In this document: positions 43,834-54,040 of the stretch, one piece after another
Layout: every line of letters starts with the position of its first letter
Position numbering within the stretch: position 1 is the first letter of the stretch
NCBI GenBank assembly: GCA_016788485.1
Contig: JAEUSV010000091.1
Span: forward strand, 138 to 64,137
Direction: 5' to 3'
Source: Flavobacteriales bacterium
GTDB taxonomy: Bacteria; Bacteroidota; Bacteroidia; Flavobacteriales_F; PHOS-HE28
DNA length: 64,000 nt
The notes under the pieces: generated by a model
Told to the model about the DNA's origin: nothing
Database searches by the model: none
What the model saw: only the letters and a program-made list of their open reading frames with translations
Translations under genes and position numbers: made by a program

Positions 43834-45441
43834 TCAGGGCTGCTCGTCCTCCCCCCCGCCGGGCTCGTAGGGGGGCGGCACCTTTTCCCCATCGATGCGC
43901 ACCTCGTGGTCGTCCTTGTAGCGGATGGTGATCGTGGGGTTGCCGTTCACATCGAACCAGGTGAAATCGCCCTGGCGCAGGCCCATGCTGTAGGTGCCCT
44001 GGGCCATCAACCCCCCTTCGGACCAGTACCAGCGGTGCCGGCCATCAGGCTCACCGTTCACATAGGTGCCCGTGAAGCTCTTGCGGCCATTGTCGTAGGT
44101 ATGCACCCACGGACCATCCTTCAATCCGTCCTTGTAGGATCCCTCTTCGCGGTGATCGCCGACGTGGTACACCCACTTCCCATCGCGCAACCCATCGATG
44201 TACTCGCCCTGGGTGATCACATTGCCGGTGTCATCGTACTCCACGGAGGCACCATCCTCCTTCCCCTTGCGGTAGTTCTCCTCGCGGTGACGGGCACCGT
44301 TCTCGTAGTACCAGACCCATAGGCCCTGCGCCTGACCGTTCTGGTAGCGTCCCTTCTGCTCAACGGCCCCACTGCGGTGGAAATAGGTCCAATCACCCTC
44401 GCGTCGGCCCGCCTTGTACTCGCCCTCTGCCCGTTTCTCGCCGGTGTTGTAATACTCCGTCCATCGACCTTCCAAGGCGCCCTGTTCGTTCACGGAACCC
44501 TCGCTCATGCGCTTGTCGCCCTGGTAGATCGCCGCGCCACTGACGCGTCCCTGCTCATCGTAGTAGCGGAACAGGCCCTCCTTGCGACCGTCGGCGGAAT
44601 AACTGCCAAGGCTGCTCACCTTGCCGTTGGCGTGGTAGGTGTTGCGGATCTTCAACAGCACCGTCTCCTGCGCACCGACCTGAACCTGGTCCTGATCATA
44701 CTTCACCATGTTCTTCAGGTTGCCGGTGGCGTCGTACTCCTTGAAGATGCCCTGGCGCTTGTCATCCACGAAGCTCCCCTCCCACTTGATCTTCCCGTTG
44801 GGATGGAACTCCTTCCACAGCCCCTGCCGGAGGCCGGCCTTATCGCGCCGGTTGATCTCCTCGCGCCGCTGCAGCACGCCTGCGCGATAGGTGATGATGG
44901 AGATCAACCTCCCGTCGGTCGCGTACTCGAAAGCCTTGCCGTCCTCCCGCCCATCCTTGAACGGAACCACTTTCTCGACGGTGCCATCAGGGTGGAAGAA
45001 CCGGGTATCGCCCTGTTTCAGGTCGTTCACAAAGAGCTCCTCGGAGACGAGCACCCCGCTGGTGTCGTACTTGCGTAGCGCGCCGTTCTTGCGATCATCA
45101 CGGTACTCGATCGTGGAACGCAGCATCCCCTCGGGGCCATAGAACCGCCACACGCTGTCCAGCTTGTGGTCCAGGCGGTTGCCTTCGCTCTTGAGCACGC
45201 CGTTCTCATGGTAGGCTTTCCAATAACCCTCGGGTCTGCCGTTCGCCAGGTAGCCTTCGCTGGCCACCTTTCCGTTGGGGTGAAAGTACTGCTTGAACCC
45301 GTCCTCGCCCTGCGCCAACACACCCACTGGGAGCATGCTCAACACACAGAACATGCATTGAATGATGTTCTTTAAAAGAAGGTGTTGATATGATAAGGGC
45401 TGTTGATCGTGTTGATGATCGGCCCGTGCGGTGCTTGACAT
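43834..45441 (-). CDS. MORN-repeat-variant / YwqK-like repeat protein
   Basis: It has about 20 tandem G.W..Y..NG....EG.Y..G...G repeats. The alternative start at 45354 would begin directly with a signal peptide (MFCVLSMLPVGVLAQ). Confidence 0.8.
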   Translation of the reverse strand: MSSTARADHQHDQQPLSYQHLLLKNIIQCMFCVLSMLPVGVLAQGEDGFKQYFHPNGKVASEGYLANGRPEGYWKAYHENGVLKSEGNRLDHKLDSVWRFYGPEGMLRSTIEYRDDRKNGALRKYDTSGVLVSEELFVNDLKQGDTRFFHPDGTVEKVVPFKDGREDGKAFEYATDGRLISIITYRAGVLQRREEINRRDKAGLRQGLWKEFHPNGKIKWEGSFVDDKRQGIFKEYDATGNLKNMVKYDQDQVQVGAQETVLLKIRNTYHANGKVSSLGSYSADGRKEGLFRYYDEQGRVSGAAIYQGDKRMSEGSVNEQGALEGRWTEYYNTGEKRAEGEYKAGRREGDWTYFHRSGAVEQKGRYQNGQAQGLWVWYYENGARHREENYRKGKEDGASVEYDDTGNVITQGEYIDGLRDGKWVYHVGDHREEGSYKDGLKDGPWVHTYDNGRKSFTGTYVNGEPDGRHRWYWSEGGLMAQGTYSMGLRQGDFTWFDVNGNPTITIRYKDDHEVRIDGEKVPPPYEPGGGEDEQP

Positions 45442-45451
45442 TGTGGGATAT

Positions 45452-45459
45452 CAAAAGTA
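45452..45459 (-). promoter_or_regulatory. candidate -7 box (TACTTTTG on the minus strand)
   Basis: 10 nt upstream of the ATG at 45441. Confidence 0.35.
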
Positions 45460-45768
45460 CTCAACGTGTTGTCAACGATCGGTGATATCCGTGGAGTACA
45501 ACAAGGACCGGATGAAGCTGGATTACGACCGGTCGATCCCACGATCGTGGATGCACAGGCTGGTGGGTCGTGGTGCATAGTTCGAGGTACCCATGCACCG
45601 CTCCCGATCGTTCGATCCCCGTGGGAATTTGCTGATGATGGATCCTTGTCCGGATCGGCCGATCGATCAAGGGAAGAGGACATGGATCGGAGCCCGATGC
45701 ATCATCAATAGTTATCCACGGGAAAACACAGTGATCAACGATCGGCCGGTTGGATCCGTTGACGGGGG

Positions 45769-45776
45769 TATCTTTG
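45769..45776 (+). promoter_or_regulatory. candidate -7 box (TATCTTTG)
   Basis: 37 nt upstream of the rpiB ATG at 45814. Confidence 0.4.
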
Positions 45777-45813
45777 AAGCGCGAAAGCCGCTGAAGGCTT
45801 GGCACTTGTGCGA

Positions 45814-46260
45814 ATGCGGATCTCGATCGGAAGCGACCACGCTGGCGTGGACCTGAAGCATGTGGTGAAGGACCACCTGAAGGCGGCCGGCCACGACGTG
45901 AAGGATGAAGGCACCCACGTGCGCGACAGTGTGGACTACCCTGACTTCGCGCATGCAGTGGCCCGTACCGTGGCCGGGCATGGCAGTGACCTCGGCATCG
46001 TGATCTGCGGCAGCGGGAACGGTGTCAACATCACCGCGAACAAGCATGCGGGTGTACGCGGTGCGCTCGCATGGAACGCGGAGGTGGCCGCACTCGCCCG
46101 GCAGCACAACGATGCCAACGTGCTGGCCCTTCCTGCACGGTTCATCGGCGTGGAGGAGGCCCTGGCCATCGTGGACGCCTTCCTGGCCGCCACCTTTGAA
46201 GGGGGGCGTCACGCCCGCCGTGTCGAGAAGATCGAGCCGGCCGGGGCGTCGAACCATTGA
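45814..46260 (+). CDS. rpiB: ribose-5-phosphate isomerase B
   Basis: MRISIGSDHAG..LK, GIVICGSGNG, NKH.GVR.A, ND.NVL.L..R. Confidence 0.95.
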   Translation: MRISIGSDHAGVDLKHVVKDHLKAAGHDVKDEGTHVRDSVDYPDFAHAVARTVAGHGSDLGIVICGSGNGVNITANKHAGVRGALAWNAEVAALARQHNDANVLALPARFIGVEEALAIVDAFLAATFEGGRHARRVEKIEPAGASNH

Positions 46261-50958: not shown

Positions 50959-51867
50959 CTAGGGCTCCTGCTTCTGCGCGATGTAGAGCGAGCTGGATGT
51001 CGGGCGGTCCGAGGCAAGGGCAAGGAGGTTGGACCAGGCTCCTACTAGGGTGCCTTTGAGCAGTGCGGTGATCGGTCCTGCGCCGCGATGTTGTTCGGTG
51101 AGCATGCTGATGTAGGGTGCGTCGAACCACATGGGGCGCACCGCTTTCAAAGCGAAGCCATGTTCTTGGAAGAGCCGATTCATGTCGCTCCTGCGCAGGT
51201 GGTTCAAATGCCTGGGTACGTCGAGTGCGGCCCAGTCGGATCCGTAGTGTGTGGCATCCCAGCTCTCGCGGTCCGGTACCGCGATGAACAGGAAGCCCCT
51301 GTCCGCCATCACGCTGTAGAGCTTTTTGAGGGTGCGACGCAGGTCTGGAACGTGTTCGAGCACGTGCCACATGGTCACCACGTGGAATTGCTCAGCGGAG
51401 GGTATCTGGTCGAGGTTGGGCAGCACTTCGGCGGCTTGGTCGGCTATGGCTTGACCGCGTGCGCCGGTGTCTGGCTCCACTCCTGTTACGAGGTAGCCAT
51501 GTGCTTTCATGTGGCCAATGAACTGGCCTGTGCCACATCCCACATCGAGCAGACGGCCGTTGGGGCGGTACCTGGAAATGAGTTTGCGCTTCGCCTCCAG
51601 CGCTCGACGACGCACCACTTGGTAGAGCTTGTCCTGGAATGTGGCCGATGCGTTGGTGTGGGAGATGTAGCTGTTTGACCGATAGTAGCTTCCGATGCTG
51701 TTCTGGTCCGGTCGCGGGTTGGTGAACCACGCCTTGCAGTCAGGACATTCGGCAATGGTGAAAGTCTCCTGGCTCACGGTGTGGTCTCTCGCCCGGAGTA
51801 CAGGTTGGAGCGGACTGGCGCCACAGATGGCGCAGCTGGTGATGCTTTCGAGTACGGTGTGTTCCAC
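50959..51867 (-). CDS. class I SAM-dependent methyltransferase with an N-terminal zinc ribbon
   Basis: CAICG...CPDC is followed by LLDVGCGTGQF (motif I). The apparent GTG start lies inside the palindrome at 51861-51874. Confidence 0.8.
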   Translation of the reverse strand: MEHTVLESITSCAICGASPLQPVLRARDHTVSQETFTIAECPDCKAWFTNPRPDQNSIGSYYRSNSYISHTNASATFQDKLYQVVRRRALEAKRKLISRYRPNGRLLDVGCGTGQFIGHMKAHGYLVTGVEPDTGARGQAIADQAAEVLPNLDQIPSAEQFHVVTMWHVLEHVPDLRRTLKKLYSVMADRGFLFIAVPDRESWDATHYGSDWAALDVPRHLNHLRRSDMNRLFQEHGFALKAVRPMWFDAPYISMLTEQHRGAGPITALLKGTLVGAWSNLLALASDRPTSSSLYIAQKQEP

Positions 51868-51874
51868 GTGGAAC
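51861..51874. repeat. palindrome GTTCCACGTGGAAC, copy 1
   Basis: A perfect 14-bp palindrome in the 18-nt mnmG/methyltransferase spacer. The 19-mer TGTTCCACGTGGAACGATC is shared with copy 2. Confidence 0.9.
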
Positions 51875-51885
51875 GATCGGTTTTT

Positions 51886-53766
51886 TCAGCGGCCGAGGTA
51901 GACCATCAGAACGCTCAGGTCGGCGGGTGATACCCCGCTGATCCGGGATGCCTGGCCAAGGGTGGCGGGACGGATCTTATTGAGCTTTTGGCGGGCCTCG
52001 ATGCTGAGTGAGGTGAGTTTCTCGTAGTCGGTTTCAAGATCAAGCGGTACCTCGTCAAGGCGAGTGAGTCGCTCTGCGAGCTCTCGTTCCTTGGAAAGGT
52101 ACCCTTCGTATTTGACGTTGATCTCGATCTGTTCGCAGACCTCGTTCTTAAGGTCTCCGATGGCGGCAAGTGCGGTTTCTGTTTGGGGTGCCAGGGCCAG
52201 TATCGCATGCATGTCGAGCTGCGGCCGTGTGAGCAGTTCGTAGGCGCGCACCTTCTGGCGTACGGGGGTTGTTCCACGTGGAACGATCAGTTCATTGGCG
52301 CTTTCTGGGCTTACGCTTTCGTGCTGCAGGGCGTTGACGATGGCGTGGATGTGCTGGTTCTTCGACTCGACCCGGGCCATGCGTTCGTCGCTGGCCAGGC
52401 CGATGGTGTGGGCTCTGGGTGTAAGTCGGAGGTCGGCGTTATCCTGGCGAAGCAGGATCCGGAATTCCGCCCTGCTGGTGAACATCCGGTAAGGCTCCTC
52501 CGTGCCCTTGGTGATGAGGTCGTCGATGAGCACGCCGATGTACGCCTCGTCGCGGCCAAGAATGAGGGGTTCCTTCTCCTTGAGCTTCAGGCTGGCGTTG
52601 ATGCCGGCCATGAGCCCTTGGCATGCCGCTTCCTCATAGCCGGTGGTGCCGTTGATCTGCCCTGCGAAATAGAGGTTCTCTACAAGCTTTGTCTCCAGGG
52701 TGTGCTTGAGCTGGGTGGGGGGGAAGTAGTCGTACTCCACTGCATAGCCCGGCCTGAACATGCGCGCATTGGCGAAGCCCGGAATCCTGCGCAGGGCTGC
52801 GAGTTGCACCTCTTCGGGCAGGCTTGTGCTGAATCCGTTGATGTAGGTTTCGACGGTGTTCCAGCCCTCCGGCTCTACGAAGACCTGGTGGCGGTCCTTG
52901 TCGGCGAAGCGGTCGATCTTGTCCTCTATGCTCGGGCAATAGCGCGGTCCAAGGCCCCTGATGCGTCCATTGAACATCGGGCTCCTGTCGAAGCCGGTCC
53001 GGAGAATATCGTGGACCTCGGGCGAGGTGTAGGTCATCCAGCAGCTGAGCTGGCGCTCAAGCGGTCGGGTGGTGGGGGAGAAGCTGAACTTGCCTGGGTT
53101 GGTGTCTCCGGGCTGCTCTTCCATCTGGCTGTAGTCCAAGCTACGCCCGTCCACTCTGGGGGGTGTCCCGGTCTTCATGCGGCCGGCCTGAAAGCCGAGC
53201 TCGGTGAGCTGCTCGGTGATGCCATGGCTGGCTTTCTCGCCAGCCCTGCCTCCCCCGATCTGCCGCTCGCCGATGTGCATCACCCCGTTCATGAAGGTGC
53301 CGCTTGTGAGCACAACCGCGCGACCGGGGATGGTGTTGCCCAGGCTGGTGCGGACCCCTACGACCTGGTTGTTCCTGACCACGATGCCGGTAACGTTGTC
53401 CTGCCAGAAATGGACGTTGGGCGTTCGCTCCAACATCAGGCGCCATTCATGGGCGAAGAGGTTGCGGTCGTTCTGGGTGCGGGGGCTCCACATGGCGGGG
53501 CCCTTGCTCCGGTTCAGCATCCGGAACTGGATGGCGCTCCGGTCGCTCACGATGCCTGAGTAGCCCCCTAGGGCGTCGATCTCCCGTACGATCTGCCCCT
53601 TGGCCACGCCCCCCATGGCGGGGTTGCAGCTCATCTGCCCGATGACTCCCATGTTCATGGTGATCATCAGTACGCGGCTACCCAGGTTGGCTGCTGCCGC
53701 TGCTGCCTCGTTGCCTGCGTGGCCCCCGCCGACGATGATCACATCATAGGCCTCGTGCATGCTCAT
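51886..53766 (-). CDS. mnmG: tRNA uridine 5-carboxymethylaminomethyl modification enzyme MnmG (GidA)
   Basis: [41 protein letters not shown], and a C-terminal GVSPADL. Confidence 0.95.
52271..52284. repeat. palindrome GTTCCACGTGGAAC, copy 2 (inside the mnmG coding sequence)
   Basis: It encodes IVPRGTT in the variable C-terminal region of MnmG. Confidence 0.9.
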
Positions 53767-53788
53767 GGTTGACTCCTTGTTTCGTTGT

Positions 53789-53802
53789 GTTCCACGTGGA
53801 AC
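53789..53802. repeat. palindrome GTTCCACGTGGAAC, copy 3
   Basis: 23 nt upstream of the mnmG ATG. It shares the TGTGTTCCACGTGGAAC context with copy 1. Confidence 0.9.
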
Positions 53803-54040
53803 CTTGGCGCGGATCCTTGATCTTCAGGAGATTAACTCGTTCCTGTAGGTGTAGGTTCCATGGACGCAGCAAAGTTAGTGGTCATGTTGCAGGTACTTCG
53901 ATGCTTCGGCCCAATGGCGAGCTCTTCGAACACCTTATCAAGGATCCATTCACAGCCTGCTCCCAGTGTTCCACACATGCGACGCCAAGGTTGGCATGGC
54001 TTGCAAGGCCATTTTCCCGCCGGTTGGATAGTTTTCCACC

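Follow-up and report, generated by a model that had tools for sequence, protein, structure and literature searches.

Why should a 14-bp palindrome, GTTCCACGTGGAAC, recur three times around and inside a single gene, mnmG (gidA)? The locus lies in a stretch of 64 kb, here called the window, from a metagenome-assembled genome. A preliminary description had placed perfect copies at 51861-51874, 52271-52284, and 53789-53802, and all three were confirmed, although their possible identity as parS was left unnamed at that stage. When up to two mismatches were permitted, these copies were the only matches in the window, and shuffled versions of the window contained a mean of 0.23 matches, with none of 100 shuffles reaching three.

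The same picture emerged for the 3,582,947-bp draft genome, which carries three exact copies, all of them inside 1.94 kb, and two more matches at one mismatch (five in total at ≤1 mismatch). Copies 1 and 2 have the 19-mer TGTTCCACGTGGAACGATC in common, and copies 1 and 3 the 17-mer TGTGTTCCACGTGGAAC; the genome contains each of these sequences exactly twice. The original view that this recurrence is not a matter of chance is therefore upheld by the shuffles and the genome count. The count also found no other exact copy away from mnmG, which makes the motif specific to this locus rather than abundant genome-wide. Because the draft is 84% complete, more sites of this type could be absent from the assembly. 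Spaced half-sites (GTTCC-N(0-12)-GGAAC and its inverse) were also counted, and no alternative spacing was favored.

An 18-nt spacer separates the mnmG stop codon from the GTG of the methyltransferase gene that follows. Copy 1 falls in this spacer and overlaps the probable start codon; the GTG that opens the longest open reading frame of the methyltransferase lies inside the palindrome. Copy 3 precedes the mnmG ATG, and the gap between them (53767-53788) is 1 nt shorter than the 23 nt first given. As originally reported, copy 2 is translated as IVPRGTT (MnmG residues 494-500) in a variable segment of the protein. The methyltransferase gene is located directly 3′ of mnmG in 56 related loci examined by tblastn and is a conserved downstream neighbor of mnmG in Bacteroidota. 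MnmG and this neighbor may form a tRNA wobble-modification pair. The features relevant to this analysis are compiled in Table 1.

Table 1. Features of the mnmG locus and the ParA-ParB genes. Positions refer to the window unless the contig C106 is named.
Feature	Position	Strand	Remarks
Probable parS-1 (TGTTCCACGTGGAACG)	51860..51875	.	Exact match; 16-mer is the Myxococcus xanthus parS consensus (PMC7022226 Table 1)
Probable parS-2 (TGTTCCACGTGGAACG)	52270..52285	.	Within mnmG; in-frame V495-P-R-G-T499
Probable parS-3 (TGTTCCACGTGGAACC)	53788..53803	.	22 nt 5′ of mnmG ATG
mnmG (gidA)	51886..53766	-	Pfam GIDA 539 bits; NCBIfam TIGR00136 835 bits
Zinc-ribbon and class I SAM methyltransferase gene	50959..51867	-	Methyltransf_23 E = 1e-30
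GATC-dense non-coding spacer, candidate oriC	45355..45815	.	6-8 kb from the parS cluster
ParA and ParB genes	C106:51582-53287		Another contig than the parS sites
ParB	C106:52394-53287		177 bits on TIGR00180 (cut-off 58); ParA immediately upstream

Including their flanks, the sites read TGTTCCACGTGGAAC(G/C), and the outermost base on one side of the 16-mer is thus G or C in this genome where the consensus has A. Chromosomal parS sites were reportedly treated by Livny et al. in 2007, and the consensus used here was taken from papers that cite their work. The sequence TGTTCCACGTGGAACG (copies 1 and 2) is identical to the parS consensus of M. xanthus, differs by one flanking base from TGTTCCACGTGGAACA of Pseudomonas putida and TGTTCCACGtGGAACa of Pseudomonas aeruginosa, and represents a variant of the general parS consensus TGTTNCACGTGAAACA (PMC7022226 Table 1). 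All three sites are 16-bp palindromes that fit this consensus or a validated variant of it. On the strength of this match, and of the genomic evidence described below, we consider it very probable that all three palindromes represent chromosomal parS, the centromere-like sites at which ParB of a ParABS chromosome-segregation system is loaded.

The likeness to known systems extends beyond the letters of the motif. The parS sites of M. xanthus, P. aeruginosa, and P. putida (the GTTCCACGTGGAAC type of TGTTNCACGTGAAACA) share the identical 14-bp core, and Myxococcus shares the full 16-mer as well. In both genera, as in this genome, the sites are palindromic, few, clustered, origin-proximal, and in some cases intragenic, and they are accompanied by ParA and by a ParB that has a helix-turn-helix (HTH) domain and a CTPase box. 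The number of sites is about 22 in Myxococcus, and Pseudomonas has four near the origin plus others, whereas here three sites occupy the footprint of one gene, which amounts to three copies in a 3.58-Mb draft. The Spo0J-parS site of Bacillus subtilis (TGTTCCACGTGAAACA), on which ParB nucleates and from which it spreads, has the same half-site, TGTTCCAC. B. subtilis also tolerates intragenic parS, for example the site inside spo0J.

A ParA-ParB pair is encoded in the same draft genome. The ParA protein carries a deviant Walker A motif (KGGVGKT), and ParB has an N-terminal GLGRGL motif and a GERRFRA box. The best relatives of this ParB in the PDB are chromosomal ParB/Spo0J proteins (7BNK, 1VZ0, 6T1F, 6SDK, and 4UMK). 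Alignments against the residues defined in PMC7383237, from which our own residue numbering was derived, identify R173 and G201, and Q162, G170, K171, N178, and R204 are also conserved. By our own alignment, R173 and G201 assign the protein to the RXXG class, which would be expected to bind parS rather than the Noc site. Thus, the genome appears to supply a cognate ParB with parS-specific HTH residues together with its ParA.

Noc, a ParB paralogue of Firmicutes, recognizes a related 16-bp palindrome called NBS (ATTTCCCGGGAAAT). The Noc model is the top NCBIfam match for the ParB described here, but its score of 227 bits does not reach the cut-off of 315 set for Noc. We considered a Noc binding site of the ATTTCCCGGGAAAT type as a candidate and rejected it, given that positions 1 and 6 of the site are G and A, respectively, as in parS and unlike NBS, and that ParB has R173/G201 and not Q173/R201.

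The parAB genes are not beside the parS sites. They reside on another contig in this genome and roughly half a chromosome away in relatives. This arrangement differs from the textbook gidAB-parAB-parS neighborhood: in Pseudomonas, parAB is located beside gidAB near the origin, whereas here parAB (and dnaA in relatives) are far from the sites.

Relatives of this organism provide a broader view of the motif. Of 41 related genomes, 39 contain the pattern GTTYCACGTGRAAC one to five times, typically at one locus, whereas a reversed control pattern occurs zero to one times. ParB is encoded by 40 of these 41 genomes, and the lone exception, a reduced genome of 0.5 Mb, is one of the two that lack the motif. 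Across Bacteroidota, the exact site is present at 59 of 73 mnmG loci, which span GC contents of 30 to 67%. In 46 of the 73 loci, a site follows the mnmG stop codon at a distance of no more than 150 nt, mostly 1-12 nt, and in 44 a site precedes the gene by at most 150 nt. Sites only a few nucleotides from the start and stop codons recur in several orders. Almost all sites are inside mnmG or no more than 150 nt from its ends, and only six were found farther away in the 3-kb flanks. In Chryseobacterium, for example, TGTTTCACGTGAAACA is found on each side of mnmG. Furthermore, extra in-frame copies exist at no fewer than five different codon positions of the gene, which may point to separate gains. 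If these sites are parS as proposed, the chromosomal centromere across Bacteroidota would be tied to mnmG rather than to parAB.

The element was initially suggested to be the operator of a dimeric regulator. A dimeric DNA-binding protein is indeed the likeliest reader of such a palindrome, but the sequence is that of canonical parS and not that of a local regulator's operator. A dedicated dimeric transcription factor other than ParB that controls the mnmG-methyltransferase operon, possibly through looping, would agree with the site closely upstream of the mnmG ATG, with the overlap between another site and the start of the next gene, and with the tendency of the sites to hug the mnmG start and stop codons throughout the phylum. 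We nevertheless regard this explanation as very unlikely. The sequence is identical to validated parS and the same motif is bound by ParB in other phyla, a ParB of the parS type is encoded in the genome, and the motif co-varies with the presence of ParB. Moreover, no regulator gene was noted among the open reading frames directly flanking the sites, and operators are not usually located inside a coding region as far as 1.5 kb downstream of the promoter.

The copy inside mnmG allowed selection on the DNA to be separated from selection on the protein. We aligned 29 mnmG orthologues with 66-76% nucleotide identity to the gene in the window and retained 84 four-fold-degenerate codon columns in which the amino acid is invariant. 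Only 3 of the 84 columns have an invariant third base, and all three lie in the palindrome. Their third bases, T, T, and A, occur in a gene whose GC3 is 80%. Because this invariance is confined to the palindrome, purifying selection must act on the DNA. The orthologues bear out neither an insertion of IVPRGTT nor a peptide preserved with different codons, a pattern that the preliminary description had named as refuting: the alignment reveals a substitution in a variable segment, and the codons are retained along with the peptide. The result is a clean case of a coding sequence that is constrained by a DNA-binding site, with VPRGT frozen together with its codons.

The same alignment bears on the suggestion that a short mobile palindrome (REP/MITE-like) or a DNA-uptake sequence landed three times at this locus. 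The identical 19-mer flanks of copies 1 and 2 are what such an event might leave behind. However, three copies in the genome compare with hundreds for uptake sequences and REPs, the coding copy replaces residues and adds none, and the positions of the sites are orthologous across genera and families. A mobile or uptake origin is therefore vanishingly improbable.

Another explanation invokes RNA, with the palindromes forming hairpins that serve as a terminator, an attenuator, or a processing site flanking mnmG. Sites that immediately precede the start codon or follow the stop codon are well placed for such roles, and a terminator-like call was made at copy 1, but this only call of its kind is on the antisense strand. 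The promoter/terminator scan was otherwise uninformative. When the three sites were folded on the mnmG sense strand, the hairpin had 5 base pairs and -6.2 kcal/mol, with a z-score of about 0 relative to shuffled sequences, and at copy 3 it was absent from the minimum-free-energy fold. The sense strand lacks a U tract, and compensatory variation was not seen. Since the motif sequence is invariant, recognition should be specific to sequence and not to structure, and we judge a hairpin function to be extremely unlikely.

A chromosomal parS cluster would be expected close to the replication origin. GC skew within the window is too noisy to place an origin, and therefore we sampled the chromosomes of relatives whose loci are syntenic with the window. 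In one complete chromosome of 2.97 Mb (G041), cumulative GC skew reaches its minimum at about 1.812 Mb, and mnmG is flanked by two parS sites at 1.8049 and 1.8068 Mb, 5-7 kb from that minimum. In a genome from the same genus (G012), the skew averages -0.012 (n = 22) to the left of position 1,056 kb versus +0.016 (n = 8) to the right of it (p = 2e-4), and the parS sites at 1,062.3-1,064.3 kb are at this sign switch. In both relatives, GC skew thus places the sites no more than about 10 kb from the origin, and an origin-proximal position is predicted on this basis for the present, fragmented genome. The GATC-dense spacer in the window (Table 1) has 15 GATC sequences per 400 bp, the genome maximum, compared to a mean of 2.3, and the syntenic spacer in G012 is located at the GC-skew sign switch. 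From these sequence features, we infer that the spacer is a candidate oriC, and the sites accordingly adjoin a predicted replication origin.

A similar arrangement is known from another member of the phylum. A Hi-C study of Bacteroides caecimuris reports parS sites of the same consensus clustered at an origin that was set by GC skew and read coverage, and it also notes that dnaA and the origin can lie apart (PMC10197239). The positions of sites relative to genes are not described in the parts of the study consulted; the present analysis adds the tight framing of mnmG and the in-frame copies. In the relatives that we sampled, dnaA is far from the origin, as is parAB. With this unannotated feature named, contig C54 is identified as origin-proximal in the metagenome-assembled genome, which could assist assembly orientation and growth-rate estimates based on origin-to-terminus read coverage. 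A marker of this kind is useful because the position of dnaA is a misleading guide to the origin in this clade.

Proximity to an origin also invites the proposal, made at the outset, that the palindromes are head-to-head variants of DnaA boxes, which could then belong to oriC or to a DnaA-regulated mnmG promoter. It is true that mnmG (gidA) adjoins oriC in many bacteria, that the origin is at most about 10 kb away in relatives, and that TTCCAC resembles the core of the DnaA box TTATCCACA. However, only 6 of the 9 box positions are matched by the half-site TGTTCCACG. The unit conserved in relatives is not a 9-mer but the whole 14-16-bp palindrome with its central CG, the signature of parS. A genome-wide search for TTATCCACA with one mismatch gave 249 matches and no cluster of three or more within 600 bp. 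Likewise, no DnaA box was found in the spacer upstream of mnmG (53767-54040) with one mismatch allowed. The chance that these are DnaA-box variants is exceedingly small.

With chromosomal parS as the preferred identity, a mechanism can be borrowed from established ParABS biology, and by this analogy we infer ParB binding, spreading, and segregation here. Each 16-bp site would be recognized by a ParB dimer through its HTH domains. On binding CTP, ParB would form a closed clamp that slides onto the adjoining DNA. Since the three sites are within 2 kb, we propose that they nucleate a single partition complex, which would cover several kilobases around mnmG and probably extend to the nearby origin. 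Nucleoid-bound ParA-ATP would then pull the duplicated complexes, and hence the origin regions, apart.

One part of the classical model may not transfer. In B. subtilis, 10 origin-proximal sites load SMC-ScpAB, whereas here no SMC hinge was detected. The search for the hinge (PF06470) found none in this genome, but the control search with the same model also missed Bacteroides and Caulobacter, so that an SMC may have escaped detection. According to the B. caecimuris study, there are no reports of SMC in Bacteroidetes (PMC10197239). The classical model may accordingly hold for this organism without its SMC-loading half.

The sites described here belong to a known kind of element of low novelty, and the understanding of ParABS is unchanged by them. 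A role as centromere does not by itself explain why the sites are placed so tightly against the mnmG start and stop codons throughout the phylum. One idea is that mnmG itself is the conserved centromere gene of Bacteroidota, with parAB and dnaA having moved to the far side of the chromosome, and that its framing has a function beyond marking the centromere. Sliding ParB clamps might couple expression of mnmG and the methyltransferase gene to the state of the origin or of segregation, or transcription through these two genes might shape the partition complex. We consider such an added function unlikely. The framing of mnmG across the phylum and the location of parAB and dnaA far from the origin are modest curiosities of these chromosomes.

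The 14-nucleotide palindrome GTTCCACGTGGAAC occurs three times in the window, exactly where it had first been noticed, and no other match is found there even with up to two mismatches. Dinucleotide-preserving shuffles of the window yielded a mean of 0.23 matches, and none of 100 shuffles reached three. The preliminary description had also raised the question of genome-wide abundance. A search of the whole assembly (168 contigs, 3.58 Mb, 65.6% GC), in which the window is C54:138-64137, revealed that the 14-mer is not abundant: these are the only exact copies, and allowing one mismatch adds two more. With merely three copies in the genome, a dispersed, mobile, or uptake-type element, as had been suggested, is not borne out. 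The 19-mer and the 17-mer shared between pairs of copies are each present exactly twice in the genome. The original gene calls were likewise correct, and the sole correction concerns the gap between the upstream copy and the mnmG ATG, which measures 22 rather than 23 nt.

Coordinates of the palindromes and of the genes and spacer discussed in the text
Feature	Location	Strand	Remarks
Palindrome copy 1 (downstream)	51861-51874		
Palindrome copy 2 (internal)	52271-52284		within mnmG
Palindrome copy 3 (upstream)	53789-53802		
mnmG	51886..53766	minus	TIGR00136, 835 bits
Zinc-ribbon + Methyltransf_23 gene	50959..51867	minus	after mnmG
DUF6851/PAP2 gene	upstream of mnmG	opposite to mnmG	
GATC-dense non-coding spacer	45355-45815		460 bp; candidate oriC; 6-8 kb from the palindrome cluster
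ParB gene	C106:52394-53287		same genome, contig C106

When one base is added on each side, two copies read TGTTCCACGTGGAACG and one reads TGTTCCACGTGGAACC. The former is the parS sequence of Myxococcus xanthus, and the general parS consensus is TGTTNCACGTGAAACA, with TGTTCCACGtGGAACa in Pseudomonas aeruginosa and TGTTCCACGTGGAACA in P. putida (PMC7022226, Table 1). This comparison identifies the 14-mer as the core of a parS known from other phyla. With high confidence, we assign the palindromes as a predicted canonical chromosomal parS centromere. The earlier interpretation is supported in part: a protein-binding palindrome remains the best description, but each identity put forward for it gives way to parS. 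Among these was a DnaA-box-like site, yet the half-site matches at only 6 of 9 positions and a box cluster is absent. An RNA hairpin was also rejected (-6.2 kcal/mol, z about 0).

A profile search found one strong ParB_N match in the genome, at a locus on contig C106 that codes for ParA (MAKIISIVNQKGGVGKTT...) and ParB. The 297-residue ParB, whose gene overlaps the ParA stop, includes MTKKKGLGRGLSALL... and carries a GERRFRA box and the helix-turn-helix LTQEQLSEKVGKDRTTVTNYLRLLRL. It scores 177 bits on the parB_part model (cut-off 58) and 227 on the Noc model, which is below the cut-off of 315. The solved structures nearest to it are those of chromosomal ParB/Spo0J proteins from Myxococcus, Thermus, Caulobacter, Bacillus, and Helicobacter. 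In parS-specific ParB variants, R173 is invariable and position 201 is occupied by a small residue, with G preferred, and no particular residue is required at 179 or 184; Noc carries Q173 and R201 (Jalal et al. 2020, PMC7383237). As numbered from alignments to Myxococcus ParB and Noc, the protein has R173, Y179, R184, and G201, which places it in the predicted RXXG parS class, and the conserved DNA contacts Q162, G170, K171, N178, and R204 are all present. Positions 179 and 184 are permissive, with K or R found at 184 in ~28% of ParBs (PMC7383237). In the same numbering, position 172 is D where S is conserved. Position 4 of parS in this clade favors C over T (GTTC versus GTTT). Reading the palindromes as the operator of a dedicated regulator is improbable and unnecessary, given that the sites are identical to parS and the genome encodes ParB.

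The copy inside mnmG is translated as IVPRGTT. In an alignment of MnmG proteins, other lineages have an equally long but variable segment at this place (e.g., LVAKGTS, LEERGTT, and LDSLGSA), which excludes an insertion. We then considered 29 orthologues with VPRGT whose nucleotide identity to the window mnmG is 66-76%. Of their 84 four-fold degenerate codon columns with an invariant amino acid, just three are also invariant at the third base. All three belong to the palindrome, where the V, R, and G codons end in T, T, and A despite a GC3 of 80% for the gene. A single orthologue (L020, site TGTTCCGCGTGGAACA) departs from CCA at the P codon. Because third-base invariance is confined to the palindrome, the constraint acts on the DNA, which dictates the peptide. 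The same peptide written in different codons, together with a lack of flanking copies, had been named as evidence against a DNA element; the codons are instead held, which supports a real one.

Across 41 relatives (24 same-genus genomes and 16 that belong to other families in the class), GTTYCACGTGRAAC occurs one to five times in 39, compared to zero to one time for a reversed control pattern. In same-genus genomes the copies are spaced as they are here, at about 410 and about 1,510 bp. ParB is encoded in 40 of the 41; the sole exception is a 0.5-Mb reduced genome, which is also one of the two that lack the motif. We also collected 80 mnmG loci from Bacteroidota assemblies (locus GC 30 to 67%), spanning Flavobacteriales, Chryseobacterium, Larkinella, Fibrisoma, Sediminibacterium, Hanamia, Parapedobacter, and Bacteroidales, among others, and the gene was cleanly extracted in 73. 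At least one exact parS site is present at 59 of these 73 loci. Sites lie within 150 nt upstream of mnmG at 44 loci (typically <10 nt before the ATG), within 150 nt downstream at 46 (mostly 1-12 nt past the stop), and inside the gene at 36, and just 6 sites are farther away within the 3-kb flanks. Intragenic sites fall at five or more distinct places along the gene (codons ~226, 390, 469, 495-500, and 583), which suggests separate gains. At 56 of the 80 loci the gene directly after mnmG is the zinc-ribbon/Methyltransf_23 gene, and parS lies in the very short gap that separates the two. Its product has no named equivalog in NCBIfam (top match UbiG, 44 bits, under cut-off); as an idea only, it may take part in xm5U34 tRNA modification as a pathway partner.

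By analogy with characterized ParABS systems (PMC7022226, PMC13438810), ParB dimers would nucleate at the three sites, take CTP, clamp shut, and slide outward. A single partition complex would thereby cover mnmG and its surroundings, probably as far as the origin, and would be segregated by ParA. The classical second role of parS, SMC-ScpAB loading, is doubtful in this organism, because the SMC hinge (PF06470) was not detected in this 84% complete genome, in a search whose control also missed Bacteroides and Caulobacter, and because a Hi-C study reports no known condensin homologues in two Bacteroidetes species (PMC10197239), with which our hinge search agrees.

Since GC skew in the 64-kb window alone is uninformative for the origin, and dnaA lies on another contig, the chromosomes of relatives were used. 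The complete 2.97-Mb chromosome of G041 (OX044365.1) has only two parS sites, which flank mnmG at 1,804,870 and 1,806,756. Twenty 20-kb windows around the circle gave negative skew from 450 to 1,650 kb and positive skew from 1,800 kb round to 300 kb, and a contiguous 120-kb scan placed the cumulative minimum at ~1,812 kb, 5-7 kb from parS. Its dnaA, at 335 kb, is near the opposite, terminus-side switch (320-450 kb). Thirty windows sampled along a 1.2-Mb contig of the same-genus genome G012 gave mean skews of -0.012 (n=22) and +0.016 (n=8) to the left and right of 1,056 kb, respectively (Mann-Whitney p = 2e-4), with parS at 1,062.3-1,064.3 kb in a region collinear with the window. GATC density in the GATC-dense spacer reaches 15 per 400 bp, the genome maximum (mean 2.3), and its syntenic counterpart in a same-genus genome falls at the skew sign switch, so that synteny makes it a reasonable candidate for oriC. 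A DnaA box matching at 8 of 9 positions (TTATCCACG) is located within this spacer, at 45712.

In the related genome G009 (4.1 Mb), ParB and parS share a contig but are 2.03 Mb apart, and in G012 ParB is 5 kb from dnaA, with parS on a different contig. In this clade, neither dnaA nor parAB is close to parS or to the origin defined by skew (G041, G009, G012, and G016, and contigs C106 and C153 of the present genome), so that dnaA marks the origin poorly. Whereas the textbook arrangement has parAB beside gidA/parS, here parAB is adjacent to neither. Also unlike the textbook picture, the sites closely border both ends of a single gene, mnmG, at its start and stop, phylum-wide. These features and a GATC flank are modest curiosities and not a new kind of system. 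The GATC abuts copies 1 and 2 (51875-51879 and 52285-52289), where the mnmG sense strand reads GATCGTTCCACGTGGAACA. Many relatives keep this one-sided flank at the downstream and intragenic copies, and the upstream copy does not share it. One copy may have descended from the other, or the flank may belong to a longer site for recognition or methylation.
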